A DNA stretch of 64,000 nt from Patescibacteria group bacterium (GTDB lineage: Bacteria > Patescibacteriota > Microgenomatia > 0-14-0-10-38-17). The stretch lies in the NCBI GenBank assembly GCA_050953885.1, contig JBMNNJ010000001.1, positions 207,437 to 271,436 on the forward strand, given 5' to 3'. The position numbers were made by a program, and so were the translations under genes. Positions 2,434 through 46,619 of this stretch are shown here, piece after piece. Each line of letters opens with the position of its first letter. The stretch's first letter is position 1. Below the pieces are notes generated by a model. It did no database searches. It had not been told where the DNA came from and saw nothing but the letters and a program-made list of their open reading frames with translations.

Positions 2434-3363
2434 ATGATAAAAAATAAAGAAAAAATTACCGTCAAACTTAAAAAAGCCTTAGGAGTAGAAAAAGTAAAAG
2501 AAAACGTTCTTTTGGCTCCCTTGACTACCTTTGGCATTGGCGGACCAGCTTTTTGGTTTATCACCGCCGGGAACAAAAAAGAAATCCTTGAAGCAATAAA
2601 AGCAAGCCGCGAGCTTAAAATTCCTTATTTTATCCTGGGAGGAGGATCAAATATTTTAATCGCCGATCAAGGATTTCCCGGTTTGGTAATTAGGATTAAG
2701 AATGAAGGCTTAACCATTAAGGGAACAAAAATTGCCGTTGAGGCGGGATTACCGCTGGCAAAATTAGTAGAAATTGCCCAAAAAAACTTACTTAGCGGCC
2801 TTGAATGCGGTGTTGGCATTCCAGGCACCGTCGGCGGAGCTGTTTGCGGTAATGCTGGCACCCGCGAAGAATGGATTGGACAAAAAGTCGCCAAGGTGAG
2901 TATAATAGACAAGAAAAATAAAATTGCTCATTTAAATAATCGTGACTGCAAATTTTCTTACCGGGAGAGTCGGTTTAAAAATAATCCCCAAGAAGTAATT
3001 TTGGAAGCTGTTTTTAACTTAAAGAAAGAAAAAAGAGAGGTTATTGAACAAAAAATTAAATCATTTTTAGAGGCGCGGGGAAACCAGCCCAAAGAAAAAA
3101 GCGCCGGCTCGGTTTTTAAAAATCCTCCCGGCGATTCAGCCGGAAGGCTAATTGATCAGGCCGGTCTTAGGGGTAAAAAAATTGGTCAAGCGCAAATTTC
3201 CAAAAAACACGCTAATTTTATTATTAACACCGGTGGCGCTAAAGCGGAGGAGGTGTTAAAACTTATAAGACTAGCCCAAAAAACAGTGAAAGAAAAATTT
3301 AATGTTAATCTGGAACTGGAAATAAAACTGGTGGGATTCAGTAATGAAACGACGAAAAAATGA
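2434..3363 (+). CDS. murB: UDP-N-acetylenolpyruvoylglucosamine reductase MurB
   Basis: FAD-binding N-terminal domain (LAPLTTFGIGGPA...), C-terminal GSVFKNPPG and AGRLIDQAGLRG motifs typical of MurB. Confidence 0.85.
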   Translation: MIKNKEKITVKLKKALGVEKVKENVLLAPLTTFGIGGPAFWFITAGNKKEILEAIKASRELKIPYFILGGGSNILIADQGFPGLVIRIKNEGLTIKGTKIAVEAGLPLAKLVEIAQKNLLSGLECGVGIPGTVGGAVCGNAGTREEWIGQKVAKVSIIDKKNKIAHLNNRDCKFSYRESRFKNNPQEVILEAVFNLKKEKREVIEQKIKSFLEARGNQPKEKSAGSVFKNPPGDSAGRLIDQAGLRGKKIGQAQISKKHANFIINTGGAKAEEVLKLIRLAQKTVKEKFNVNLELEIKLVGFSNETTKK

Positions 3364-6153: not shown

Positions 6154-7185
6154 ATGCGTTTTTTCCTAGGTTTAATCCTTATTTCCTTTGCGGCTACCAG
6201 CGCCGCCATTGTTCCTTTTATCAATCTTCTTTATCGGCTTAAATTTACCCGCCGTCCTCAAAAAACCCGCGACTTTTTGGGGAGGCGAACTCAAATTTTT
6301 GACCGGTTTCACCGGCAAAAAGCCGGCACTCCCTTGGGCGCCGGTATTCTCCTTATCGTCTTGATTAGTATTTTCTTCGCCGCCGCTTTTTTCTTTTCAA
6401 AAGCAACCGGCGTTTATATCACCAGCGTCTTTCCTATCACAGGAGAACTAAACGTTATTTTTTTCACTCTTTTTTCCTTCGGCCTTTTGGGTTTTTTTGA
6501 CGACTTTAAAAAGATTTTTAATCTTGAAGAAAAAGGCGTCTTTGGTTTGAGGTTGCGCGACAAGTTTCTCTTTCAATGGCTCTTGGCTTTTATCATCGCT
6601 TTCCTTCTTTACTATCAGTTGGGGATTAGTATTATTAACATCCCCTTTTGGGGAGTTTTAGATCTTGGCCTTGGCTACATTCCTTTGGCGGCTTTTATTA
6701 TTGTTGCTTTTACCAACGCCTTTAATATCACCGATGGTCTCGATGGCCTTGCCTGCGGTTTGCTTCTTATCTGCTTAGTCGCCTTTTGCTTCCTTTCTTT
6801 CCAAATTTTTGATACTCCCTTAACGATTCTCACCAGCATTTGGATAGGAGTTTTAATTGCCTTCCTTTATTTCAATGTCTATCCGGCGCGGGTTTTTTTG
6901 GGCGATACCGGCGCCATGGCCTTTGGGGCGCTCATGGCAGTGGTAGGTTTAATGTTGGGAAAAATTATTGCCTTGGCTTTTATCGGGGGAATTTTTATCT
7001 TAGAAGTAGGCTCCAGTCTTCTCCAAATGCTTTCCAAGGCCTGGCGGGGCAAAAAGATTTTCCGAGCGGCTCCCGTTCATCTTTGGTTGCAAGACCGCGG
7101 CTGGGAAGAGCCCAAGATTGTTATGCGCGCTTGGCTGGCTCAATTGGTTTTAGCAATTTTTGGCCTTTGGCTGGCTACTTTTTAA
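6154..7185 (+). CDS. mraY: phospho-N-acetylmuramoyl-pentapeptide transferase MraY
   Basis: Multi-TM protein with NAFNITDGLDGLA and VFLGDTGAMAFGA motifs. Confidence 0.9.
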   Translation: MRFFLGLILISFAATSAAIVPFINLLYRLKFTRRPQKTRDFLGRRTQIFDRFHRQKAGTPLGAGILLIVLISIFFAAAFFFSKATGVYITSVFPITGELNVIFFTLFSFGLLGFFDDFKKIFNLEEKGVFGLRLRDKFLFQWLLAFIIAFLLYYQLGISIINIPFWGVLDLGLGYIPLAAFIIVAFTNAFNITDGLDGLACGLLLICLVAFCFLSFQIFDTPLTILTSIWIGVLIAFLYFNVYPARVFLGDTGAMAFGALMAVVGLMLGKIIALAFIGGIFILEVGSSLLQMLSKAWRGKKIFRAAPVHLWLQDRGWEEPKIVMRAWLAQLVLAIFGLWLATF

Positions 7186-7194
7186 AACTTCAAA

Positions 7195-8514
7195 ATGGAA
7201 TGGAAAAACAAAAAGGTTTTGGTAATGGGGCTGGGCACTCATGGCGGAGGAGTGGGAACGGCGCGATATTTAGCCCAAAAAGGGGCAAAGGTGCGGGTAA
7301 CCGACTTAAAAACCGCCTCCCAATTAGCTTCTTCCCTTGAAAAACTTTCCTCCTTACCCATTAAATTTACTTTAGGCGAACATCGTCCCGAGGATTTTCT
7401 TGAAGCCGAGGTGGTGGTTCGCAATCCCGACGTTCCCCCAAACTCGCCTTTTTTGAAAATCGCCTACGAGCATGGCGCCAAAATTGAAATGGAAAGCAGT
7501 ATTTTTTTTGAAGAATTGCCTTCTTTGAAAACAATTGGCATCACCGGTACTAAAGGCAAAACCACCACCACCATGCTTGTCTACCAAATGCTTAAAGAGG
7601 CAGGAGAAAAAGTGGTGGTCGGCGGTAATTTGGAAATTTCCCTTTTGGAGCTTTTACCCCAAATTGACAAGGACACTTGGGTGGTAGCAGAACTTTCCTC
7701 CTGGCAGACAGAAGGGCTTGAAATTTGTCAGAAATCACCTCATATCGCCGTTATTACCAATATTTTTCCTGACCATCTTAATCGCTATCAAAAGATGGAA
7801 AAATATGTGGAGGCCAAAAAATTTATTTTAAAATATCAGGGCAAAAACGATTATAAGGTCCTTAATAAAAATAATCCCTATGCCCCAGAGTTAGCCCTTA
7901 CCTCGCCAAGCCAAAATTTTTTCTTTGAGAAAAAAAGTCTTAACCCTCAAATCCGCCAAGTGAACCCTCTTTTAGGCGAGCATAATTTGGAAAATCTTGC
8001 CGCCATGGAAACAGTGGGAAAAATTTTAGGAATAAAAACAGATAAAATTGTCAGGGCGGTTAAGCAATTTTCTCCCCCTCCCCATCGCCTGGAAAAGGTA
8101 AGAGAAATTAAAGGCATTACCTTTTACAATGACTCCGCCGCCACCAATCCTGACGCCGCCATCGCGGCCCTTGGTTCCTTTGGCAAAAGGCCAATTATTT
8201 GGATTTTGGGCGGGGCCGACAAGAATCTTAAATTTGAGAAATTGGCCTCCGCTTCCACCAAGGCCAATATTAAAGCAGCCATTCTTCTGAACGGAAGCGC
8301 TACTTTAAAAATAAAAGAGGCATTAGAAAAAACAAAAGTTGCCTTCCCTTTCTTTGGGCCTTTTGATGATTTTGAAAAAGCAGTTCAAAAAGCTTATCAA
8401 CTAGCGAGGGGAGGAGAGGTAGTGCTTTTATCACCCGGCGCGGCCAGCTTTGGCATGTTTAAAAACGAATTTGACCGAGGAGAAAAATTTAAAAAAATTG
8501 TTAATTCTTTATGA
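7195..8514 (+). CDS. murD: UDP-MurNAc-L-Ala--D-Glu ligase MurD
   Basis: KKVLVMGLGTHGGG Rossmann N-terminus, GITGTKGKTTTT P-loop, Mur-ligase C-terminal domain. Confidence 0.85.
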   Translation: MEWKNKKVLVMGLGTHGGGVGTARYLAQKGAKVRVTDLKTASQLASSLEKLSSLPIKFTLGEHRPEDFLEAEVVVRNPDVPPNSPFLKIAYEHGAKIEMESSIFFEELPSLKTIGITGTKGKTTTTMLVYQMLKEAGEKVVVGGNLEISLLELLPQIDKDTWVVAELSSWQTEGLEICQKSPHIAVITNIFPDHLNRYQKMEKYVEAKKFILKYQGKNDYKVLNKNNPYAPELALTSPSQNFFFEKKSLNPQIRQVNPLLGEHNLENLAAMETVGKILGIKTDKIVRAVKQFSPPPHRLEKVREIKGITFYNDSAATNPDAAIAALGSFGKRPIIWILGGADKNLKFEKLASASTKANIKAAILLNGSATLKIKEALEKTKVAFPFFGPFDDFEKAVQKAYQLARGGEVVLLSPGAASFGMFKNEFDRGEKFKKIVNSL

Positions 8515-34471: not shown

Positions 34472-34535
34472 GGCGGCCTTTGGCGCAAAAATCCCGAGGT
34501 TTGAAGCTATTTAACTCCGGGGGTTTGAAGCTACT
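34472..34535. repeat. family C unit CCTTTGGCGCAAAAATCCCGAGGTTTGAAGCTATTTAACTCCGGGGGTTTGAAGCTA
   Basis: Further copies at 36246-36275, 36717-36749, 36866-36897, 36947-37006, 37718-37812, 38495-38545, 39345-39455, 42690-42740, 43262-43310, 50825-50890, 58200-58250, 59051-59096, 59888-59990, in both orientations. Confidence 0.8.
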
Positions 34536-34972
34536 TAGTTTTTTGTGCTATAATAACCTTATCGTTAATCAACCCTCCGTCGACAAACTAATTAAAATCT
34601 TTTTAAAAAGAGGTGGACGGATCGACAAATACTATCTTCAAGATAATAATCAGAGCAAGCACACCCTGCTCTACCTTAAAGGTTGGTTTGCCGGCAAAAA
34701 CATTCGCGAGGCCCTAAATAAAGCCCTTTTTTCGCCCAAAAACAAATAGACTTTGGGGGGAAACTGGCTATTAGCCGACCTTCGTGTTATAATACTTTTT
34801 GATTGATGCAGATTGTGCCTTGGTACATCTGCTTATACTGATTTAGTTTTTTAAAAGATAAAGATACCTCAAGCTTTCTACTCAAGTATCTTCACATTAA
34901 AAACGACTTCATTTCTTTAAGCAGATCTACCTGGGCGCAATTCCCCCCTCAACTTAAAACCGAAAATAACTC

Positions 34973-36166
34973 ATGGCCTACTTCAAACAAAGAAACTATT
35001 ATCGCCGGCCAACTTCTGGCTCCGGCAATTGGGCCAACAAAAGACATTTTCGAAATTCAGGAAAAAAACTCGACGAAAGCCTGTTTATTAAAAAAGCCAA
35101 AGGCGGCCCGGTTGAAAAACCTTTTGCCGAAGGAGCCAAGTTTGCCGACTACGCCCTGGTTGACCAATTAAAAACCAACATTGCCCAACACGGCTATCAA
35201 ACCCCCACCCAAATTCAAGACCAGGTTATCCCTCAGGTTTTGGCCGGTAAAGACATTATTGGCGTGGCTAACACCGGCACCGGTAAAACGGCCGCTTTTT
35301 TAACCGGCCTCATTAATAAAGCCTATTTAGACAGAAATCAAAGAGTATTAATCATCGTGCCCACCCGGGAATTAGCCCTGCAAATTGGCCAAGAATTTAA
35401 CCATCTTGCCAAAGGAATGGGTCTTAATATCGCTACCATTATCGGCGGCGTCAATATCGGCTGGCAAATAAGTCTTTTAAGATCAAATCCCAATTTTATC
35501 GTTGGCACCCCGGGTCGGTTAAAAGATTTAATTGGCCGCAAAAAGATCGAGCCGGCCTCTTTTGGCAATATTGTCTTGGACGAGGTTGATCGCATGGTCG
35601 ATATGGGCTTTATTAAAGATATTAAGTACTTAGTTTCGCTTTTACCCCAAAACCGCCAAGGGCTGTTTTTTTCGGCGACAGTTGATGATAAAACAGAGCA
35701 AATCTTGCAAAACTTTGCTCACCAACCGATTCGGGTCTCGGTAAAACACCAAGACACTCTTGATAATATTGATCAGGATATTATAAAAATTACCAATCGG
35801 GGCACTAAAATCGACGTCTTAAGAAAATTACTGGCCCAACCGGGCTTTGATAAGGTGCTGATTTTTGGCCGAACCAAATGGGGCATGGAAAGGCTGGCCC
35901 GCTCCCTGGTGGAATACGGCATTAAGGCCACCGCTATTCATGGCAATAAATCTCAAAACCAAAGACAAAAAGCCCTGGCGCAATTTAAAAACAACCAGCT
36001 TCAGGTCTTAACGGCCACTGATGTGGCTTCTCGAGGCCTAGATATTGATAACGTTACCCAGGTAATTAATTATGATCCTCCGGCTACTTATGATGATTAT
36101 GTTCACCGCATCGGCCGAACCGGCCGGATGGGTAAAAAGGGCTTAGCGCTGACCTTTATCGAATAA
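34973..36166 (+). CDS. DEAD-box ATP-dependent RNA helicase
   Basis: Q motif, ANTGTGKT (motif I), PTRELA, DEVD (motif II variant), SAT-like, HRIGRTGR (motif VI). Confidence 0.9.
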   Translation: MAYFKQRNYYRRPTSGSGNWANKRHFRNSGKKLDESLFIKKAKGGPVEKPFAEGAKFADYALVDQLKTNIAQHGYQTPTQIQDQVIPQVLAGKDIIGVANTGTGKTAAFLTGLINKAYLDRNQRVLIIVPTRELALQIGQEFNHLAKGMGLNIATIIGGVNIGWQISLLRSNPNFIVGTPGRLKDLIGRKKIEPASFGNIVLDEVDRMVDMGFIKDIKYLVSLLPQNRQGLFFSATVDDKTEQILQNFAHQPIRVSVKHQDTLDNIDQDIIKITNRGTKIDVLRKLLAQPGFDKVLIFGRTKWGMERLARSLVEYGIKATAIHGNKSQNQRQKALAQFKNNQLQVLTATDVASRGLDIDNVTQVINYDPPATYDDYVHRIGRTGRMGKKGLALTFIE

Positions 36167-36280
36167 CCCCAATCCCCGCTCCTCTTGAGGAAAAAAAAGC
36201 TCCTAAGGGTAAAATAAAAAGTGCTATTTAGAAACCGCGTTTATAAGCTAACCAACGCCGGGGGGGGTTAAATAGCTTTT

Positions 36281-36622
36281 TTATTTATTTAAATACATCT
36301 TGAATTCAATGCCGAAATTTTCAAATCCGTTCTTCTCATACATCTTATGGACACTTTCTCTTTCATAACGGCTGGTAGCGACAAGTTTGTAGCACCCGAG
36401 ATTTTTAGCTTCGGTGATAACCATATTTAATAATTTAGTGCCGATGCCCTGTCCTCTAAGTTGTTCATCAACAAATAAATCCTCTAACAAGCCAAATGGT
36501 TCTTTCTTTAGGTCATTTTTCATTACATACAAAAAGGCTCGGGCAACTTCTTTTCCGTCTTTTTCTATAAAGAATTTTACTCCAAATGATTTAACTGGTT
36601 TTTTGTTTATTTTTATGTCCAT
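36281..36622 (-). CDS. GNAT-family N-acetyltransferase
   Basis: Acetyl-CoA binding motif A RGQGIGTKLL. Confidence 0.8.
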   Translation of the reverse strand: MDIKINKKPVKSFGVKFFIEKDGKEVARAFLYVMKNDLKKEPFGLLEDLFVDEQLRGQGIGTKLLNMVITEAKNLGCYKLVATSRYERESVHKMYEKNGFENFGIEFKMYLNK

Positions 36623-37049
36623 TTTTAGTTTTCCCGGAAGAATTTAATTGCTCAAAGGTTTACAATATCTTACCTAAAAAATTGAAATAAGGCAATTTTT
36701 AACCTGTCATTGTGAAGCTAATCAACGCCGGGGGTTAAATAGCTTCATCTGAAGAACGCAGATCCTGACTTTCGTCAGGATGACAGCTACGGGGATGATT
36801 CCCGCCAGGCGGATTCGTCAGAGCTTGTCCTGAATTTAATTCAGGAATGACAGCTACGATTAGTGTGCCTATTTAAATCCGGGGGTTTGAAGCTATCAAG
36901 GAAAGCGCTTTTACTGCGAATAATTAATAATAGTTAATATTATCTGCCTTTGGCGCAAAAATCCCGAGGTTCGAAGCTATTTAACTCCGGGGGTTTGAAG
37001 CTATTTATTCAAATTATTAGGAGCATAACCCCTATGTTAAACTAAATTT

Positions 37050-37718
37050 ATGAAAAAGTTCTTTCTGCCTTTTCTTGGCCTCATCGCTCTTTTTCTAGGT
37101 CTTAATAACCTTAATCTTCGCCAGGAAATTCAAAAATTAACCGCCCAAAACAAAGTTATCGAAGTTATTGACGGCGATTCTCTAACCTTAGCCTCCAAAC
37201 AAAGAGTTCGCCTGGCCAATCTTGATGCTCCCGAATTGGAGTTTTGCGGCGGCATTGAAGCGAAGAATAAACTTGAATCCCTCACTCTAAATAAGACTGT
37301 CCGCTTGGAAATAATCGGCCACGACAACCTGAACCGCTCGATTTCTTTAGTTTATGTTGACAATACTCTGGTTAACGAAATCGTTCTCAAAGAGGGCTGG
37401 GCTCGCTATGACGGCTCGCCTTCGCCGGAAAAAGAAAAATTAAAACAAGCTTATGATTATGCCTTTGAAAACCGGCTAGGGATTTTCAGCCCCTTGTGTT
37501 TTTCCGAAGAGCCACCCAGCCCCAAATGCCTAATTAAAGGCAATGTCGACCGCCATTATGGCCAAAAAACCTATCATTTCCCCGGTTGTAGTGGTTATCC
37601 CCAAGTAATGGTAGAAAAAGACTTAGGCGAAGATTGGTTTTGTTCAGAAAAAGAAGCTGAAAAAGCTGGCTTTACCAAATCCAAAAATTGCTATGGTAAA
37701 ATATACGTTCCTATTTAA
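37050..37718 (+). CDS. secreted thermonuclease (staphylococcal-nuclease/SNase-like) with a Cys-containing C-terminal module
   Basis: Signal peptide. SNase active-site region RLANLDAPE, OB-fold. C-terminal KGNV...YHFPGC...WFCSEKEAEKAGF module. Confidence 0.8.
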   Translation: MKKFFLPFLGLIALFLGLNNLNLRQEIQKLTAQNKVIEVIDGDSLTLASKQRVRLANLDAPELEFCGGIEAKNKLESLTLNKTVRLEIIGHDNLNRSISLVYVDNTLVNEIVLKEGWARYDGSPSPEKEKLKQAYDYAFENRLGIFSPLCFSEEPPSPKCLIKGNVDRHYGQKTYHFPGCSGYPQVMVEKDLGEDWFCSEKEAEKAGFTKSKNCYGKIYVPI

Positions 37719-37951
37719 CCCCCGGAGTTAAATAGCTTCAAACCTCGGGAAAAATATATAATTTTGAACTTACCTCTCCGGCGCGAGCGCCAAAACTACT
37801 GGGCAGGTAGACAAAAATTTAAAACTCTGTTAAAATAGAGAAAACCGAAGAAAAACCAAATATTTGTTTGAAAATTAAAGCTGATGGTAGCATAAAAAGG
37901 CTAAGAGGGATTTCTGGCTTGCTAAAAAATTTTTAATCATCCTTATTACTC

Positions 37952-38440
37952 ATGTTGATTATTCATCCCCAGCCCAATCAGTGGAAAATGTATAGAAAGA
38001 TTCGATTAGCGGCCTTAAAAGAAGATCCGCAAGCCTTTGGCCGCTTTTTTAAAGAAGAAAAAACATATTCCAAAGAAAAATGGTTAGAACGAGTAAATAA
38101 TGACTACAGTCTACTGGCTCTTGAAAACAACAAACCGATAGGAATAATCAGCGCCTATATTACCGAAGAAAAAAACAACAAAGTTGCCCATGTCGTTAGT
38201 GTTTTTGTTCTTAAAGAAGCTCGTGGTAGGGGTGTTGGGAAAAAGTTGCTTAATGCCGTCTTAGAGAAAATAAAAAAAGACCCGACCATTAAAAAAGTTG
38301 TTCTATCTGTAAACAAAGAGCAAATTCCCGCTGTCAAGCTATACCAAAAATTTGGTTTTGAAATTATTGGCCAAAAGCCCGAGCGATTGGGTGATGGCAA
38401 AAAACACATAGAATACGAGATGGAACTATCTTTGAAGTAA
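37952..38440 (+). CDS. GNAT-family N-acetyltransferase
   Basis: Motif A RGRGVGKKLL, GNAT fold length. Confidence 0.8.
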   Translation: MLIIHPQPNQWKMYRKIRLAALKEDPQAFGRFFKEEKTYSKEKWLERVNNDYSLLALENNKPIGIISAYITEEKNNKVAHVVSVFVLKEARGRGVGKKLLNAVLEKIKKDPTIKKVVLSVNKEQIPAVKLYQKFGFEIIGQKPERLGDGKKHIEYEMELSLK

Positions 38441-38556
38441 AGGCCCCAAAAGTAACCTAGGCCAAGAAACCACCTAGCCATCTAGAGGGAAACCCTGTTA
38501 TTTCGTAGCTATTTAACCCCCGGAGTTGATTAGCTTTTATAATGGAAGCCTGAAAC

Positions 38557-39345
38557 ATGTCTTCGAAGAGGCGCTTGAAGAAAAGCTGTAAAGTTTCTAC
38601 TACAATACAAATGGGCATTACTGGCAACAATAAAAAAACAAAAACCGAAATCTGTCACAAACATTTCTTGCAAATTCAAGAAAAGTTAGCTACTAACACG
38701 TGGGCAAAAGAAAAACCTAAAGGGAAAAAAGAAATAATAAAACTCTTAAGAATTTGCAATCAGGCATTTGGGAAAATTCCTGGATATATTAAAGTTCTTA
38801 AATCAATATCAAAAAACTTAAATGAAAACGATTCAATTAAATGGCTAAATTATTTTTCTCAAATTCGATGTGCATATTATCTACAAACACAAGGGGTTAG
38901 TATTACCGCCTTTGAGAAAAAAGTAAATGGAAAATTAATTGATTTAGAAATAAATGAGGCAACGCTTTGTGAAGTTAAATCTTTCGAACCTCAACTTAAA
39001 AAAACAGAAAACGCAATAGAATTAGAGGAAGATGTCTTTAAAAACTTTCTTGAAAATAAAATTAAAAAGGCTCTAGATGAACAAAAAGCTGACTTAGTTA
39101 TAATTGATGATATTTTTTCTTATGAATCTAAAATCTACAGATTTTTAAATTATTTCTTATCGTTCATTAATGATCCTGGTACTGAGCGTTATGAAATGAT
39201 CCAAAAAAAATTTGGTAAATATCTACCTAAAATTCTAATTCTAAGTTTTACAAGCTCAATGGCCATTAATCCCATTATCAGAGACCCAATGGGTAGCGAG
39301 TGGGTTAAAATATTGTCATTAAACAAAGCCAAAAATCATGAATAA
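38557..39345 (+). CDS. AT-rich orphan protein; weak PD-(D/E)xK-like arrangement (IDLEINE...CEVKS)
   Basis: Intact 262-aa ORF, compositionally more AT-rich than its neighbours, bracketed by family C repeats. Confidence 0.4.
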   Translation: MSSKRRLKKSCKVSTTIQMGITGNNKKTKTEICHKHFLQIQEKLATNTWAKEKPKGKKEIIKLLRICNQAFGKIPGYIKVLKSISKNLNENDSIKWLNYFSQIRCAYYLQTQGVSITAFEKKVNGKLIDLEINEATLCEVKSFEPQLKKTENAIELEEDVFKNFLENKIKKALDEQKADLVIIDDIFSYESKIYRFLNYFLSFINDPGTERYEMIQKKFGKYLPKILILSFTSSMAINPIIRDPMGSEWVKILSLNKAKNHE

Positions 39346-39571
39346 AAAAAGCTATTCGACCCCCGGAATTGATTAGCTTCAAAACTCGGGAAAAATATGT
39401 AATTTTGAACGTGCCTCTCCGGCACGGGCGCCAAAACCACCTGGCCAGGTAGCTGAAAAACCTAGCCTTAATCACCCCAAGGGTTGATTAAGGCACTCCT
39501 ATCGAGTATACTTGTACAATACTTCAAGGCACTACCGATAATTTACGCCAATACGCATAAATTTAAAATTC

Positions 39572-39958
39572 ATGATAAAATCTAAAATAAAAGAATTAAG
39601 TTATGAAAAAATGAAAGAAATCGAGAATTTAACAAAAGAGATTGTTTCTTTTCGAGACGAAAGAGAATGGAAACAATTTCATAACCCGAAAGACATGTCT
39701 TTGTCTCTAGTTCTGGAAGCAGGAGAAGTGATGGAGCACTTCCAGTGGAAAAACGGAGAAGAGATGGAAAAATATGTTACCGAGCATAAAGATGAAATTG
39801 GCGAAGAGCTTGCTGACGTTTTATATTGGATTTTGCTTATAAGCCACGACCTTAATATAAACATTCTCGAAGCTTTAGAAAAAAAAATAAAGAAAAATAA
39901 AGAAAAATATCCTGTAGAAAAAGCAAAGGGAAGACATACAAAATATACAGATCTTTAG
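39572..39958 (+). CDS. MazG-like nucleoside-triphosphate pyrophosphohydrolase (all-alpha NTP-PPase)
   Basis: EAGEVMEHFQW (E-x-x-E) and EELADVLYWILLIS (E-E-x-x-D) metal-binding motifs, 128 aa. Confidence 0.75.
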   Translation: MIKSKIKELSYEKMKEIENLTKEIVSFRDEREWKQFHNPKDMSLSLVLEAGEVMEHFQWKNGEEMEKYVTEHKDEIGEELADVLYWILLISHDLNINILEALEKKIKKNKEKYPVEKAKGRHTKYTDL

Positions 39959-39981
39959 CTTTTTGATGTTTTCGATAGAAA

Positions 39982-40689
39982 ATGCTCTCCAAAAGAAAAA
40001 ATAAGCTCGTAGCAAAAAAGAAATTGCAAGAGGGACATAGAGAAAGATTGCGGCAAAGATTTTTACAAGGAGGACTCGATTCCTTCCTCGATTACGAAGT
40101 TGTTGAATTACTTTTGACGCTAGGAACCCCCCGCAGGGATTGCAAGTCTATTGCTAAAGAAATAATTAAAAAATTTGGAAATTTATGTAACGTTCTTGAT
40201 GCTTCTCCGGAAGATCTGCAAGAAATATATGGCGTAGGCCCTAACAACATATTTGGTTTAAAATTATTTCAGGCAATATCAGAGCGATATACCGGCGAAA
40301 AAATTCAAAAAAAAGAAATTCTCAATAACCCTAAGGCAGTATTTGATTACCTTAAAAATCTTATTGGAAAAGAGAAAAAAGAAAGCTTTGTGGTTATATC
40401 ATTAAACTCAAAAAACCAATTAGTCAAAATTAATAAAATATCGTTAGGAACTGTTGATGCAAACATTGTGCACCCTAGAGAAGTCTTCCAAGCAGCCATT
40501 AAAAATTTAGCAACGCAAATAATTATAGCCCATAATCATCCCTCGGGTAGCCTAGAGCCGTCTCCGGAAGATGTTGCTTTAACTAGGCAATTGTTAGAAG
40601 CTTCTTCAATCTTAAGCATTCCGCTCATTGATCATATAATTGTTACCAACAAGGAATACTTAAGCATGAAGGAACATAATTTCATATAG
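39982..40689 (+). CDS. radC: RadC-like JAB/MPN-domain protein with an N-terminal HhH
   Basis: N-terminal HhH (EIYGVGP) and JAMM motif IIIAHNHPSGSLEPSPEDVALT. Starts 24 bp after the mazG-like stop. Confidence 0.85.
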   Translation: MLSKRKNKLVAKKKLQEGHRERLRQRFLQGGLDSFLDYEVVELLLTLGTPRRDCKSIAKEIIKKFGNLCNVLDASPEDLQEIYGVGPNNIFGLKLFQAISERYTGEKIQKKEILNNPKAVFDYLKNLIGKEKKESFVVISLNSKNQLVKINKISLGTVDANIVHPREVFQAAIKNLATQIIIAHNHPSGSLEPSPEDVALTRQLLEASSILSIPLIDHIIVTNKEYLSMKEHNFI

Positions 40690-40695
40690 GCTGAA

Positions 40696-42564
40696 ATGAT
40701 TCTTTACGAAGGAACAATTGAACAATTTAATCAAGATGTTATCCAAAACTGCATCGCTGACAGGGCGGCCGAAAAATATCAAGCCCACTACAATAGAAGA
40801 CCCAACAATTCAGAGTACCGTTCATGGGCTTACTCTCTGGCTATACTTAACAATTCTTTCCGTTATGCAAATCTTAAAGACAATTATGTTCTTCTTGAGT
40901 ATGAGCTTCCATACTCCTCACAAAGAATAGATGTTATACTTTTCGGAGAAAATTATCAGGACCAAAAAAATGTTGTCGTGATCGAATTAAAACAATGGTC
41001 CAATGATAATGTGTCACCCGCAGAATCAAAAGGAAATGTAATTGTTAATTACGGAAGATTTAAAAAAGAAGAACCTCATCCCTCTTTGAAAGTTCAGGGA
41101 TACCATTTTTATCTCAAGGATTTTATAAAGCTTTTTACTGAAAAGAATGCTCCCAACCTTAACTCTTTGGCATATGCTCATAATTATTCCCGAGAAAGAG
41201 GGGGCGTGTTGTTTTCTGATGAGTTTCAATCTGCTTTAGCGGAATTTCCTCTATTTGCAAAAGAAGATTCGATTAAGTTAGCAAACTACTTAAAAGATCG
41301 GCTAAGTAAAGGGAGAGGACAAATTCTTTACGAACGATTTGCTAGAAGCAAAATTGGCCCCTCTAAAAAGCTTCTCGCACATACTTCAGAAATGATTAAT
41401 AAGCAACAAGTTTTTAATTTAATTGACGACCAAATCGCTGCTTATAATGCAATAATGCACAAAGCAAAAAAGCTCTCGGGAACAGAAGAAAAGTCAGTGA
41501 TTTTAGTTAATGGTGGCCCAGGTACCGGCAAATCGGTTATCGCTTTGGAAGTTATGGGAGAGCTTTTAAGACAGGGTAAAAAGGTGGTTCATGCTACTGG
41601 GTCATCAGCTTTTACTAATACATTAAGGAGTCTTGTTGGTTTAAGGGCTAAAAATCTTTTCAAATTTTTTAACAGCTTCACAAGAGCGAACCCTAATTGT
41701 TTTGATGTTCTAATTTGTGATGAAGCTCATCGGATAAGGGAGTCAAGTGCGGATAGATACACCCCAAAAGAGCTAAGGACCAATGACCCCCAAATAGATG
41801 AATTGCTACGAGTTGCCAACCTCAGTGTTTTTTTTATAGATGAATATCAAATTGTAAGACCAAATGAAGTGGGTAGCATCGAAATGATTAAGAACGCAGC
41901 TAAAAGATTTAATATCAAAACCAAAAATATTATCGAATTTGAGCTGAAAACACAGTTTCGTTGTTCCGGCTCCGATGCTTACCTTCAATGGCTTGATAAT
42001 GTCTTAGGGATCAGAGAAACAGGGATTACCGAATTTGATACTAAAATGGAGTTTAAAATATTTGAAAATCCTCAAAAAATGATGAACGAAATTAGGGAAA
42101 GGAATAAGGAAAAGCCCAACTCTGCTCGTATAGTTGCTGGTTTTTGCTGGCCATGGAGTAACCCTCGGCCAGACGGATCGCTAGTGAATGATGTAAAAAT
42201 TGGAGATTTCGAAATGCCTTGGGAAAAAAAGAATCAATTTTGGAAGTGGGCAACAGATAAATCAGGCATGGAGCAAGTTGGCACTGTCTATACTGCTCAA
42301 GGGATGGAGTTTGATTATATCGCGGTAATTTTTGGTAACGACCTTGTTTATAACCCCCAAAAAAATGAATGGGAAGCAATACCTGAAAATTCTTATGACA
42401 CACAGGTTAAGAGAAACAACCCTAATCTAGAAAATCACTTAAAGCATGTTTACCGTGTTTTAATGTCTCGTGCCCATATGGGAGTTTATGTTTATTTTAT
42501 GGATAAAAAAACAGAAGATTATTTTAGAAGACATTTGCCCAAGCTCCCTTCTGCTTCTAAGTAA
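40696..42564 (+). CDS. DUF2075-type protein: N-terminal PD-(D/E)xK-like nuclease module fused to an SF1 P-loop helicase (Nhi-like)
   Basis: RIDVILFGE...VVVIELKQW (D...E-x-K), Walker A NGGPGTGKSV, Walker B DEAH box VLICDEAHRI, C-terminal VYTAQGMEFDYIAV UvrD-C-like motif. Starts 7 bp after radC. Confidence 0.75.
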   Translation: MILYEGTIEQFNQDVIQNCIADRAAEKYQAHYNRRPNNSEYRSWAYSLAILNNSFRYANLKDNYVLLEYELPYSSQRIDVILFGENYQDQKNVVVIELKQWSNDNVSPAESKGNVIVNYGRFKKEEPHPSLKVQGYHFYLKDFIKLFTEKNAPNLNSLAYAHNYSRERGGVLFSDEFQSALAEFPLFAKEDSIKLANYLKDRLSKGRGQILYERFARSKIGPSKKLLAHTSEMINKQQVFNLIDDQIAAYNAIMHKAKKLSGTEEKSVILVNGGPGTGKSVIALEVMGELLRQGKKVVHATGSSAFTNTLRSLVGLRAKNLFKFFNSFTRANPNCFDVLICDEAHRIRESSADRYTPKELRTNDPQIDELLRVANLSVFFIDEYQIVRPNEVGSIEMIKNAAKRFNIKTKNIIEFELKTQFRCSGSDAYLQWLDNVLGIRETGITEFDTKMEFKIFENPQKMMNEIRERNKEKPNSARIVAGFCWPWSNPRPDGSLVNDVKIGDFEMPWEKKNQFWKWATDKSGMEQVGTVYTAQGMEFDYIAVIFGNDLVYNPQKNEWEAIPENSYDTQVKRNNPNLENHLKHVYRVLMSRAHMGVYVYFMDKKTEDYFRRHLPKLPSASK

Positions 42565-42755
42565 CCTATTAAAACGAAGGCGTAAGGGCCCTAACGACTA
42601 TAATTAATAAAAAATTTTATTAGAAAAATAAAAGCTTGCAGGCATAAAAAACGGAGTAGCCAATTTTTTGCTAGGCTCTATGAGCTCAACCAAGAATTCG
42701 AAGCTATTTAACCCCCGGAGTTGATTAGCTTGATAACCTTAACTCAAATAAAACT

Positions 42756-43199
42756 TTAATTTTCTTCAGGCTTAAATTGTCCATCTTCGTATACATATTT
42801 CACTTCAGTCAGGTCGTTTGAGTTAACTTCTTCTGCATAAAGCAAAGTAAAACCATTCCCTACTTCTACCTCCTCTGGGGATTGCTTAACTCCAATCCTC
42901 ATCTTTTCATCACTTTCAAAAACAACCCTGCCTTCATCAATAACCCACAGCTTACCTGCTCCTTGAGTCATAGCTACAGGAATTATTACTAAACTTTCTG
43001 ACAAATCATCTCCATCCACATCCATACTAAAGTATTCTGGACACCTTCCTAAAAAACATTCCGGAAGTTCTTGACTTACAATTTTTTCTTTTTGAGCAGG
43101 AACGTTAATTTTTGTACTTCTTGAAAAATATCCAATCGCAAAACCTAAAAGGATAAAAATTAAATAGGCTAAAAACTTGCCTACTGTAATCTTAGACAT
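42756..43199 (-). CDS. small membrane-anchored hypothetical protein convergent on the island operon
   Basis: N-terminal TM helix, acidic C-terminal domain. Confidence 0.45.
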   Translation of the reverse strand: MSKITVGKFLAYLIFILLGFAIGYFSRSTKINVPAQKEKIVSQELPECFLGRCPEYFSMDVDGDDLSESLVIIPVAMTQGAGKLWVIDEGRVVFESDEKMRIGVKQSPEEVEVGNGFTLLYAEEVNSNDLTEVKYVYEDGQFKPEEN

Positions 43200-43313
43200 A
43201 AGACTATTCTATCAAAAATTGATAAAACTAGGCAAACAAGGTTAAAAAAAGAAAGAAACTTAACTATAAATTTGAAGCTATTTAACCCCCGGAGTTGATT
43301 AGCTTTTGAATTT

Positions 43314-44585
43314 TGCGTGAAATGCTTGAAATGCATGAGACGTTTGAAACGTAAAAACATTAAACGGTTCAGGCGATTCAAGCCTCAAGCTTTGAAGCAT
43401 CAAGTCTTAAGGCAGATCCTGATTTTCATCAGGATGACAACTACCTTGATTCAGAATCAGTTAGCTAAAAGTTAAAATTCAAAATTTAAAAGTCAAAAGT
43501 ACAAGTCAAAATTCAAAAGTAGAGCAAAAAACTTTTAACTTTTAACTTGTCCGCCGGCAGGCGGATTCGTTAAAATGACGGCCACGATTAGCGTCATTCT
43601 GAACTTGATTCAGAATCGTTATTATTGTCAGAAAACACAGATCCTGACTTTCGTCAGAGCCTGTCCTGAATTTAATTCAGGAATGACAGTTACCTTGATT
43701 CAGAGTCGTTATTAATGTCAGAAAACGCAGATCCTGACTTTCGTCAGGATGACGGTTGCGATTAGCGTCATTCTGAACTTGATTCAGAATCTGTGTTATT
43801 GTCAAAAAACGCAGATCCTGACTTTCGTCAGGATGACGGTTACAGGTTCTGACTTTCGTCAGAATGACGGTTACGGGACTACAGGAATAACCCTGCCCAC
43901 CAGCCGACGGACAAGTTAAAACTCAAAACTCAAATGTCAAATCTCAAAACTACATGTTAAAACTTAAAACTACATGGTAAATGTTAAAACTTTTTAAAGC
44001 TTAATTCGTCAGAATGATGACAGCCGTGCCGTCATTCCGGACTTGATCCGGAATCGGTGTTAATGCCTAAAGAACGCAGATCCTGACTTTCGTCAGGATG
44101 ACGGTTATCTGAAGAACGCAGATCCTGACTTTCGTCAGGATGACGGCCACGATTAGCGTCATTCCGGACTTGATCCGGAATCGGTGTTATTGTCAGAAAA
44201 CGGTAGATCCTGACTTTCGTCAGGATGACGGCTACGGGGATGATTCCCGCCAAGCGGATTCGTCAGGATGACGACAGTCGTGCCGTCATTCCGGACTTGA
44301 TCCGGAATCGGTGTTAATATCTGAAGAACGCAGATCCTGACTTTCGTCAGGATGACAGCTATGGGGATGATTCCCGCCAGGCGGATTCGTCAGAATGACG
44401 GCCACGATTAGCGTCATTCTGAACTTGATTCAGAATCAGTTAGATCCTGACTTTCGTCAGGATGACGCTTTCGTCAGAGCCTGTCCTGAATTTAATTCAG
44501 GAATGACGGCCACGGCAGGATAATTTTATTCGCTCATTCGTGTTGATTCGTTTCCCATTCGCGTTGCTTCGTGTCTTTGGTCCAA
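43314..44585. repeat. about 1.25-kb BIME/REP-like composite array: one family D 100-bp unit, CAAAA/AAAGT low-complexity tract, CCGCCAGCTGGCGG-type palindromes, more than 20 short hairpins in repeating units of about 95 bp, ending in a CGAAT-periodic unit
   Basis: Three hairpin types (ATCCTGAC-TTTC-GTCAGGAT, ATTCTGAA-CTTGA-TTCAGAAT, TCCTGAATT-TAA-TTCAGGA) each followed by ATGACGG. They recur with conserved linkers such as GCGATTAGCGTC and GTTATTGTCAGAAAACGCA. No unique spacers. Confidence 0.85.
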
Positions 44586-44644: not shown

Positions 44645-45400
44645 ATGAATCACTACCGCCAACGGGAAACCAATCTTTACCAGCCCGGCCAGGAAAGACC
44701 TTTTTGGTTAAGCCGCTCCAAGATTGATCTTTTTTTGGAATGCCCCCGCTGTTTTTACCTTGACCGCCGCTTGGGTTTGAGCCGTCCCGGCATGCCTTCT
44801 TTTTCCCTAAACTCCGCCGTTGACCAGCTTTTAAAAAATGAATTTGACCTCCTGCGCCAAGAAGGCAAACCCCACCGGCTGATGGAAAAATACCGCATTG
44901 AGGCCATTCCCCTAAATCATCCCGATCTTCCCCTCTGGCGCGACGATGTCCACCGCTGGGAAGGGGCCCATGTTCACCACCAGCCCACCAATTTTGAAAT
45001 AAGCGGCATTGTTGACGACATCTGGGTAGACCGGAAAAATAATTTCTACATTGTGGACTACAAATCCACCAGCACCACAGCGGAGATTTCCCTTGAAGAT
45101 GAATACAAGCAAGGTTATAAAAAACAAATCGAGGTTTACCAGTGGATTTTTAGAAAAATGGGCTTTAGCGTTGCCAACACCGCCTATTTTGTCTACGCCA
45201 ACGCCAGCAAAAACCGCCCCCGCTTTGACGGCCGTTTGGAATTTGAGGTGCAAATTATCACCTACGAGGGCAATGACGCGTGGGTAGAGCCCACCCTTAA
45301 GGAGATTAAAAAATGCCTTGATTCCCCCAAAGTGCCCGCCGCCGACCCCGATTGCGAATATTGCCGTTATCGCCAATTAATCAGCCAGAAACTTAAATGA
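44645..45400 (+). CDS. Cas4/RecB-like PD-(D/E)xK nuclease with Fe-S cluster cysteines (stand-alone)
   Basis: IVDDIWVD...FYIVDYKST (D...D-x-K) core. N-terminal CPRCFYL and C-terminal C-x13-C-x2-C cysteines. Confidence 0.65.
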   Translation: MNHYRQRETNLYQPGQERPFWLSRSKIDLFLECPRCFYLDRRLGLSRPGMPSFSLNSAVDQLLKNEFDLLRQEGKPHRLMEKYRIEAIPLNHPDLPLWRDDVHRWEGAHVHHQPTNFEISGIVDDIWVDRKNNFYIVDYKSTSTTAEISLEDEYKQGYKKQIEVYQWIFRKMGFSVANTAYFVYANASKNRPRFDGRLEFEVQIITYEGNDAWVEPTLKEIKKCLDSPKVPAADPDCEYCRYRQLISQKLK

Positions 45401-45734: not shown

Positions 45735-46310
45735 TGATTTATGCGAATTGAGACGAACGAAAAACGAATTAACACGAAAAATAAACTCAAATCTCAAATC
45801 TCAAAACGCAAAACTACATGGTAAATGTTAAAACTTTTTAAAGCTTAATTCGCCAGCGGGCGGATAAAATCATGCGTGAAATGCTTGAAATGCAGGAGAC
45901 GTTTGAAACGTAAAAACATTAAACGGCTCAGACAATCAAGCCTCAAGCGTTTCAAGCATCAAGCTTTAAGACAGATCCTGACTTTCGTCAGGATGACGGT
46001 TACGGGGATGATTCCCGCCAGGTGGATTCGTCAGAATGATGACAGCCGTGCCGTCATTCCGGACTTGATCCAGAATCAGTGTTATTGTCAGAAAACGCAG
46101 ATCCTGACTTTCGTCAGGATGACAGCTACCTTGATTCAGAATCGTTATTAATACCTAAAGAACGCAGATTCTGACTTTCGTCAGAATGACGGTTACGGAA
46201 AGCGTCAGGATGACGACAGCCGTGCCGTCATTCCGGACTTGATCCGGAATCTGTGTTATTATCAGAAAACGCAGATCCTGACTTTCGTCAGGATGACAGC
46301 TACAGGTTTG
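45735..46310. repeat. composite repeat array (CGAAT-periodic unit, CAAAA tract, family D 100-bp unit, hairpin cluster)
   Basis: Built from the same modules as 43314-44585. The ORF-track 'proteins' here (45876-46151, 46155-46367) are repeat translations. Confidence 0.8.
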
Positions 46311-46337
46311 ATTTTTGCATTTTGAATTTATTCTTAT

Positions 46338-46619
46338 ATGGTTCAGGCTAAAATCTCCGTTTCTCATCTGGCCAAATTAGCCAACCTCCATCTTTCTTCC
46401 CCAGAAGAAAAATTAATCGGCCCCCAAATTGAGGAAGTGGTGGGCTCTTTTTCGGTTTTGGACCGCGTTTCGGCTTTGGAAAAACTTCCCCCCACTTTTC
46501 AGGTGGGCCAAAACGAGAATATTCTCCGGCCCGACGAGGTTCAACCCTCCCTGGCGCGCCCAAAAATTCTTGGCAAAAATACTTTTTTTACCACCAAAGC
46601 CGTTTTAACCAAAAAATGA
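46338..46619 (+). CDS. gatC: Asp/Glu-tRNA amidotransferase subunit C
   Basis: ISVSHLAKLANLHLSSPEEKLIGPQIEEVV matches the GatC core. Immediately upstream of gatA. Confidence 0.8.
   Translation: MVQAKISVSHLAKLANLHLSSPEEKLIGPQIEEVVGSFSVLDRVSALEKLPPTFQVGQNENILRPDEVQPSLARPKILGKNTFFTTKAVLTKK

Follow-up and report, generated by a model that had tools for sequence, protein, structure and literature searches.

A cassette of three genes lies in a 64,000-nucleotide (nt) window of a metagenome-assembled genome (MAG) of a Patescibacteria group bacterium (contig JBMNNJ010000001.1, positions 207,437-271,436, forward strand). The genes encode a MazG-like nucleoside triphosphate (NTP) pyrophosphohydrolase, a RadC protein, and a 622-amino-acid (aa) protein that joins a predicted PD-(D/E)xK nuclease domain to a DUF2075 helicase domain. 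Synteny of the trio is preserved at other loci, and the three genes travel together between unrelated genomes. Its evolutionarily stable core is the MazG gene followed by the DUF2075 gene, and RadC is an accessory of one subclade. From the sequences and their genomic company, we consider it likely that the three genes together are one restriction-type defence cassette, spread by horizontal transfer, with an Nhi-like nuclease-helicase at its centre. The trio probably represents a multi-gene system, not yet described, that is related to the anti-phage nucleases of the Nhi type, which are encoded by single genes. The three same-strand open reading frames (ORFs) lie at the positions given in an initial annotation of this DNA (Table 1), and no ORF of similar length competes with them. 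The intergenic gaps measure 23 nt between MazG and RadC and 6 nt between RadC and DUF2075 (24 and 7 bp in the initial annotation).

The initial annotation had treated the three genes as a unit and had named synteny in related genomes as its own test. At least 15 further non-redundant loci, with flanks that differ, also contain the trio (L001, L002, L003, L005, L012, L015, L018, L020, L021, L035, L037, L104, L106, L131 and L117). The genes occur in three orders: RadC-MazG-DUF2075, MazG-RadC-DUF2075, and MazG-DUF2075 with a convergent RadC. In the ten loci where RadC lies upstream, it shares 59-74% identity with the window copy; in L035 and L037, where it is convergent, the figure is 31-35%. Across the trio loci, pairwise RadC identities correlate with pairwise DUF2075 identities (Pearson 0.91). 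When the window is compared by blastn with L001, the closest relative, the main alignment coincides with the three-gene block (39583-42542, 75%); a downstream Cas4-like gene aligns separately, and the flanks and the spacer are unrelated. Each long contig that was examined has different flanks. Chance does not account for the trio, because it is found in so many loci with varied flanks and three gene orders, and because RadC and DUF2075 diverge together. Homologues at least 70% identical are labelled Patescibacteria, Bathyarchaeia and Fibrobacteraceae, a cross-phylum spread that is perhaps overstated because MAG taxon labels may be wrong.

The pairing of MazG with DUF2075 extends well beyond the trio. 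Gene neighbourhoods were sampled at 94 non-redundant loci with DUF2075 relatives 39-84% identical to the window protein, taken from genome and metagenome collections; other loci came from exact-protein look-up. Neighbours were defined by simple ORF calling and clustering. MazG lies directly upstream of DUF2075, or belongs to a trio, in 16 of the 19 loci at 60% identity or more, 12 of the 13 at 50-60%, and 30-31 of the 46 at 39-50%. About 75% of the 78 evaluable loci thus show the coupling, which persists to about 40% identity; the MazG cluster was found in 58 loci. The pair spans bacteria, archaea, and plasmids of cultured Priestia. Because MazG accompanies DUF2075 in most loci at all identity ranges, the two genes constitute the conserved core. 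RadC is found in the 94-locus sample only in the subclade nearest the window and in none of the 46 loci at 39-50% identity. One more distant trio, L117, lies outside this sample and has a DUF2075 protein of 39% identity. The proposed three-gene unit therefore stands as a recurrent trio, whereas RadC is not a fixed member and the stable unit is MazG with DUF2075.

The 622-aa protein was initially described as a nuclease-helicase with a PD-(D/E)xK-like N-terminus and a DUF2075-type superfamily 1 (SF1) helicase, and both parts of this description are upheld. The DUF2075 model (PF09848, now SLFN-g3_helicase) matches residues 266-603 over its full length of 1-354 with 285 bits, against a cutoff of 24. 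The Walker A motif GGPGTGKS (273-280) and the Walker B motif DEAH (342-345) are invariant in 16 diverse homologues. In the first 250 residues no Pfam domain scored above threshold, a NERD match remained sub-threshold (17.6 bits), and no PDB entry matched the protein by sequence. An AlphaFold2 model of the N-terminus based on 13 similar sequences reached a predicted local distance difference test (pLDDT) score of 45 and was not used. The final AlphaFold model, based on an alignment of 121 sequences obtained by profile search, has a pLDDT of 90.4 and a predicted template modelling score of 0.88. Three successive strands bear E68, D79 and the E97-L-K99 motif, and all 121 sequences conserve these residues without exception. 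The predicted fold and the residue conservation support a NERD-like PD-(D/E)xK domain of restriction-endonuclease fold with intact catalytic residues. The family of this domain is modest in size, with 748 clusters at E<=1e-30 among 1.84 billion representatives. Relatives are often split or truncated: DUF2075 occupies two ORFs in L010, MazG is split in L026 and L087, and many gene calls of 240-450 aa carry the N-terminal nuclease domain alone, some on contigs of several hundred kb. This suggests either frequent decay of the module or stand-alone nuclease-domain genes.

The MazG-like family call was likewise confirmed, with 63.6 bits to PF12643 (cutoff 27) in a Pfam profile search and with metal-binding residues E49, E52, E55, E79 and D82 that are invariant in 64 module-linked homologues. 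The closest solved structure is the archaeal pyrophosphatase 4qgp (E=1.4e-19), and the mouse RS21-C6 and human DCTPP1 structures match at E about 2e-19. The alignment with the mammalian enzymes includes the E-x-x-E...E-x-x-D metal site and the FHxP and FQWK segments, and it extends to a common C-terminal KYTDL. The mammalian proteins differ in being eukaryotic pool-sanitising enzymes without a nuclease partner. The window protein is thus specifically DCTPP1/RS21-C6-like, which points to hydrolysis of deoxycytidine triphosphate (dCTP), possibly in modified form, over generic depletion of deoxynucleoside triphosphates (dNTPs). Of the (d)NTP depletion that the initial annotation ascribed to this protein, the pyrophosphohydrolase assignment stands, and generic depletion is the less favoured reading.

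RadC was annotated as full-length with HhH and JAMM motifs, and the profiles agree. The protein matches PF04002 (147 bits) and UPF0758_N (PF20582) in a Pfam profile search, the NCBIfam RadC equivalog NF000642 with 222 bits (cutoff 180), and, in the same test of NF000642 and TIGR00608, a second RadC model with 201 bits (cutoff 134). Its complete JAMM set (E134, H184-x-H186, S194, D197) is invariant in 133 sequences. The genomic company of RadC was sampled at nine long-contig matches, 59-64% identical to the window RadC and not previously known as trio loci. All nine head restriction-type operons, in a sample that is small and biased to long contigs. Three are further trios, one of which continues with an SRA-HNH gene. 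In three others (L108, L112 and L114), RadC and MazG accompany an unannotated protein of about 370 aa in place of DUF2075. Two have RadC upstream of Type III Res/Mod genes, and one has it ahead of a methylase/DUF6997/T5orf172/methylase cluster. In these last three loci (L110:4001-8711, L113:4001-8714 and L132:4001-8693), RadC is about 60% identical to the window copy and lies directly upstream of its partners with few-nt gaps or overlaps. The C-terminus of the 370-aa protein has a weak Hjc resolvase-like D...E-V-K core (E=0.04-0.09 in Pfam and PDB profile searches). Its N-terminus looks like an EVE/PUA-type reader, a tentative reading on which nothing here is built; the profile searches gave the weak Hjc-like match alone. 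In L114, a SLFN_AlbA_2 (Schlafen-core-like) protein (6316-7587) follows the operon of RadC, MazG and the 376-aa form of this partner.

These contexts bear on the possibility that the functional unit is MazG with DUF2075, or DUF2075 alone, and that RadC is a hitch-hiker in one Patescibacteria lineage without a functional tie. RadC is absent from most loci, the trio loci may mostly come from related genomes of the candidate phyla radiation (CPR; Patescibacteria), and RadC identities of about 60% could then reflect shared ancestry. Against this, RadC is adjacent to the pair in three gene orders, one of them convergent, and the trio also occurs at 39% DUF2075 identity. Moreover, the same RadC clade joins MazG beside a different nuclease and heads Type III restriction-modification (R-M) operons, and the overlaps or few-nt gaps indicate co-transcription. 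We therefore regard a hitch-hiking RadC as unlikely.

The neighbourhoods of the relatives are defence-like. AbiEii occurs upstream, together with an OLD-family TOPRIM ATPase and a PDDEXK_3 protein downstream. Other neighbours include RelB/YafQ and Gp49/HTH toxin-antitoxin pairs, Fic, NYN and Mrr, as well as Cas1, Vsr and DndB-like proteins. A SAD_SRA+HNH endonuclease of about 232 aa occurs in 12 loci and is immediately downstream in 8, and an HNH_2 protein of about 310 aa occurs in 11. On the Priestia aryabhattai plasmid NZ_CP083270.1, an operon of MrcB_N (175 bits), nucleotide pyrophosphohydrolase and DUF2075 is flanked by a restriction endonuclease on one side and a type I R-M system on the other. 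A Streptomyces plasmid carries a DUF3883/NOV_C protein upstream of a DUF2075 relative, which echoes the adjacency of DUF2075 NTPases and modification-dependent restriction enzymes already observed by Lutz et al. (2019). On a Hymenobacter plasmid (L100:1904-5890), two tandem DUF2075 genes stand by a DNA methyltransferase and a DUF4747 protein.

The DUF2075 protein itself is also variable. In 13 relatives it carries a C-terminal Peptidase_S24 (LexA/UmuD-type) extension of 140-190 aa, scoring up to 74 bits. The extensions have a LexA-like AAG/ACG/CG site in the linker, the G-x-S-M-E-P serine, and the K-R/K-Y lysine. This suggests that the S24-fused variants are controlled by self-cleavage, possibly in a RecA*-dependent manner.

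The same data speak to a housekeeping alternative, in which the genes would form a DNA-repair and nucleotide-sanitation operon for core maintenance: MazG would clean the dNTP pool, and RadC and the helicase-nuclease would process damaged DNA. The names and the general biochemistry fit, since DCTPP1-type proteins are house-cleaning enzymes. The window RadC fits the chromosomal RadC equivalog model, no second radC was seen in the 64-kb window, and the S24/LexA-type fusions connect the family to DNA-damage signalling. A core operon is at odds, however, with the patchy distribution, with the low GC content relative to the flanks, and with flanks that differ in every genome. Proteins at least 70% identical under very different taxon labels, neighbours such as AbiEii, OLD, Mrr, R-M, toxin-antitoxin and SRA-HNH genes, and the frequency of decayed or split copies also argue against it. 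In addition, E. coli and pneumococcal radC mutants are described as having no repair defect (Attaiech 2008). A housekeeping role is accordingly judged improbable.

In the preferred reading of a defence cassette, the 622-aa nuclease-helicase would be the effector. By analogy with Nhi, it would load on invading or replicating foreign DNA and couple ATP-driven unwinding to cutting. The MazG-like enzyme would hydrolyse dCTP-type nucleotides, most plausibly 5-modified dCTP as do DCTPP1 relatives. Such hydrolysis could starve phages that build modified DNA. Alternatively, it could bar the re-incorporation of released modified nucleotides into host DNA and so spare the host from the nuclease. RadC, with its HhH DNA-binding domain and JAB zinc site, would be a DNA-associated accessory or regulator of translocating restriction nucleases. 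The LexA-type self-cleaving S24 domains fused to the nuclease-helicase in sister clades may have a role comparable to that of RadC. A modified-cytosine theme is possible, although we lean against it; its basis is the homology to DCTPP1 together with guilt by association in relatives (SRA-HNH, MrcB_N, HNH_2, Vsr).

MazG could instead act through abortive infection, either by bulk hydrolysis of (d)NTPs triggered by infection or by destroying a nucleotide activator, so that the nuclease-helicase is kept off until infection. Depletion of dNTPs is an established defence strategy, used by dCTP deaminase and dGTPase systems. The MazG gene is closely linked to the nuclease gene that follows it, and AbiE and toxin-antitoxin neighbours are present. 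The closest characterised relatives, however, are low-throughput sanitisers that prefer dCTP analogues, no cyclase or other signal-generating gene accompanies the module, and the protein of 115-128 aa lacks a regulatory domain. This route seems no more probable than the housekeeping one. Least probable of all is a mobile-element payload, an anti-restriction or establishment module serving the element and not the host in the manner of phage MazG and of the RadC/ArdB modules of integrative and conjugative elements and prophages. In its favour, both anti-restriction 'moron' modules and the polyvalent proteins of conjugative elements typically contain RadC-like JAB domains, and viral-classed contigs include a few full-length relatives (three with MazG, one with the trio). 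Against it, a relative is carried by no more than 4 contigs among 2.9 million viral ones and by 4 of the 50,697 phage records. In addition, the flanks of the examined loci contain no recurrent integrase, conjugation or phage structural genes, the window RadC is the full-length HhH form and not the short form of mobile elements, and the predicted N-terminal nuclease has a restriction-enzyme fold.

Validated anti-phage relatives exist as single genes. Nhi (S. epidermidis SERP2475) and the Nhi-like proteins (Millman et al. 2022) are DUF2075 nuclease-helicases: a single chain, about as long as the window protein, carries an N-terminal PD-(D/E)xK domain and a DUF2075 SF1 helicase. They also reside in defence-rich neighbourhoods. 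Nhi nicks and unwinds phage DNA, and its trigger is thought to be the phage single-stranded-DNA-binding protein. These proteins act as single genes, whereas the window protein is coupled to a DCTPP1-like MazG and RadC, and it resembles the PADLOC Nhi model only weakly and only in the helicase core. PDC-S41 and lactococcal AbiO, the top PADLOC matches, are likewise DUF2075-type proteins flagged for defence or abortive infection, but they are single-gene entries without a MazG or RadC partner, and the matches are partial. Type IV restriction systems (McrBC, SRA-HNH, DUF3427/DUF3883) share a theme with the cassette relatives, which occur in operons with MrcB_N, SAD_SRA-HNH, HNH_2 and DUF3883/NOV_C proteins, and a DCTPP1-like partner fits a preoccupation with modified cytosine. 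The window cassette differs in having no detectable modified-base reader domain. Structural similarity to Schlafen group 3 (SLFN11, SLFN5, SLFN13) is modest; the N-domains of Schlafens are AlbA_2-type tRNA/rRNA nucleases, and these proteins lack a MazG or RadC partner.

The function of RadC is disputed. The Aravind group proposes a role in nucleic-acid or nucleotide processing, and structural comparison favours JAB metallopeptidases. JAB domains of the RadC kind are found next to DNA helicases or joined to them, as in the fused RadC-like DinG proteins, and also in the anti-restriction RadC/ArdB modules, which are conflict-related modules of mobile elements. The window RadC differs from both in being full-length with HhH and encoded by a separate gene, and it is tied to SF1 DUF2075 nuclease-helicases or Type III Res and not to the SF2 helicase DinG. 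In the searched literature we found no paper that pairs DUF2075 with MazG or RadC, none on MazG and modification-dependent restriction, and no description of a link between full-length RadC and restriction nucleases. The view in the initial annotation that no system of this composition had been described thus agrees with the searched literature and with PADLOC v2. The cassette may have been included earlier as an unnamed candidate in current DefenseFinder/PADLOC releases.

Several observations weigh against the proposed defence role. All functional steps of the scheme are derived computationally. The PADLOC Nhi model matches the 622-aa protein with 48.6 bits, at residues 242-470 and model positions 183-374 of 470, and leaves the nuclease domain unmatched. 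PDC-S41 scores 74 bits in three short stretches, the best at residues 525-611, with a model of 657 positions, and AbiO scores 53 bits over the helicase core. PADLOC v2 models matched neither the MazG-like protein nor RadC, and the same negative result was obtained for ORFs of 262 and 147 aa in the window and for the 370-aa partner of MazG and RadC in other loci. Because these matches are weak and partial, and are absent for MazG and RadC, the cassette is not a recognised member of a validated family. Searches for SRA, MrcB_N, EVE/PUA and DUF3427 readers in the three cassette proteins and in the 262-aa and 147-aa ORFs found none, and the modified-DNA idea may therefore not apply to the window cassette. 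About 25% of the DUF2075 relatives lack MazG. MAG labels may be mis-binned, as exemplified by L001, which is labelled Pseudomonadota yet is syntenic with the window. The size and bias of the nine-locus RadC sample belong here as well. Finally, S24 and RadC variants never co-occur, and since the expected overlap is only about 1.7 of 94 loci, this exclusivity is not significant and is a mere suggestion.

If the defence reading is true, the cassette adds a multi-gene branch to the Nhi/Schlafen-like nuclease-helicase immune family in bacteria and archaea. The branch would be abundant in CPR and DPANN lineages, whose defence repertoires are poorly known. It would also include the first DCTPP1-type nucleotide sanitiser hard-wired to a restriction nuclease, suggesting that modified DNA and its precursors are attacked together, or that the system has an inherent protection against self-modification. 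RadC, a near-universal bacterial protein with "a misleading name" and a function still under debate, would gain a testable role, as the cassette ties it to restriction systems and every sampled close homologue of the window copy heads a restriction-type operon. A broader proposal, tentative and in our view doubtful as a whole, has two parts. DCTPP1-like MazG and DUF2075 would be a widespread two-component anti-phage system of bacteria and archaea that combines ATP-driven degradation of foreign DNA with destruction of non-canonical dCTP, to which RadC, fused S24 or SRA-HNH/MrcB_N readers are added interchangeably. Full-length RadC would serve specifically to assist restriction nucleases that translocate, namely DUF2075 proteins and Type III Res; it might, for instance, be a metallo-enzyme bound to DNA that licenses or resets these motors or clears their path. 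Tractable homologues exist, such as the one on the P. aryabhattai plasmid.

Table 1. Coordinates of the cassette, its domains and associated features. Positions refer to the window unless a locus is named.
Feature	Position	Strand	Remarks
MazG-like gene	39572..39958	+	128 aa; predicted all-alpha NTP pyrophosphohydrolase, DCTPP1/RS21-C6-like
radC	39982..40689	+	235 aa; UPF0758_N/HhH N-terminal domain and JAB/MPN+ domain
Nuclease-helicase gene	40696..42564	+	622 aa; one polypeptide with two domains
Predicted PD-(D/E)xK (NERD-like) nuclease domain of the 622-aa protein	40696..41385	+	about aa 1-230
DUF2075 / Schlafen-group-3-type SF1 helicase domain of the 622-aa protein	41491..42504	+	aa 266-603
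Upstream intergenic repeat	39349..39445	+	degenerate AAGCTATTTAACCCCCGGAGTTGATTAGCTT copy at 39349-39379; not cassette-specific
Downstream AAGCTATTTAACCCCCGGAGTTGATTAGCTT copy	42700..42731	+	modest hairpin; not cassette-specific
Partner of MazG/RadC, about 370 aa	L108:4726-5847, L112:5056-6147, L114:5060-6190		downstream of MazG and RadC
S24-fused DUF2075 loci	L004, L026, L030, L031, L047, L053, L057, L063, L064, L073, L074, L080, L084		

The cassette has a GC content of 0.357, as compared to 0.424 for the remainder of the window, and it lies in a low-GC stretch at about 36.2-43.4 kb. The low GC content supports the view that this stretch is an accessory region. For the cassette, it also points to a foreign origin, as do the changing flanks and the homologues of at least 70% identity under distant taxon labels. 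Upstream of the cassette, the stretch (36281-39345) holds GNAT acetyltransferase genes at 36281-36622 (minus strand) and 37952-38440, a secreted-looking staphylococcal-nuclease homologue at 37050-37718, and the 262-aa ORF at 38557-39345, which has a GC content of 0.29 and no family match. The 262-aa and 147-aa ORFs, the staphylococcal nuclease and the GNATs were considered as members of the system and left out because they do not recur near the module in other loci. A Cas4-like PD-(D/E)xK gene lies on the plus strand at 44645-45400, 2 kb downstream of the cassette (PDDEXK_1, 59 bits; GC 0.49). Homologues of this gene occur at variable positions near the MazG-DUF2075 module in five other loci (L001 with 423 bits, L030, L037, L042 and L024), and it may be loosely associated with the module or may simply be a conserved housekeeping gene nearby.

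The initial annotation had placed the cassette in an accessory island delimited by repeats. The accessory character is retained, while the repeats are not its borders: both repeat families are genome-wide intergenic repeats. Promoter and terminator scans gave nothing above shuffled expectation, and Rfam had no match for the intergenic repeats. The 31-nt palindrome AAGCTATTTAACCCCCGGAGTTGATTAGCTT has 12 copies in the window (0 expected), with 9 intergenic copies at 34505-43296 (34.5-43.3 kb), and 3 elsewhere (50854, 59068 and 59958). It stands before or after almost every gene of the low-GC stretch, forms a modest hairpin (z between -1.6 and -2.6), and is not present at the closest relative locus, L001. 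It may be a repetitive extragenic palindrome (REP)-like element or a shared terminator. We rejected the idea that the palindromes are integron attC-like cassette borders because copies occur in both orientations, beside core genes and elsewhere in the window; an integrase was not searched for. A 94-nt direct repeat, with 85% identity between 39352-39445 and 37711-37804, is situated upstream of both the cassette and the GNAT gene at 37952. The intergenic repeat may in this way carry a promoter or regulatory element common to the two. The second hairpin repeat, ATCCTGACTTTCGTCAGGATGAC, has 21 copies across the window, at 43409-44486, at 45968-46317, and at 3363, 9677, 36762, 50980, 51109, 60972, 61071 and 62081. 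Some of the copies form arrays with spacings of about 42, 85 and 127 nt. The arrays are not CRISPR-like, and they create spurious ORFs, such as those at 44032-44253 and 46155-46367.

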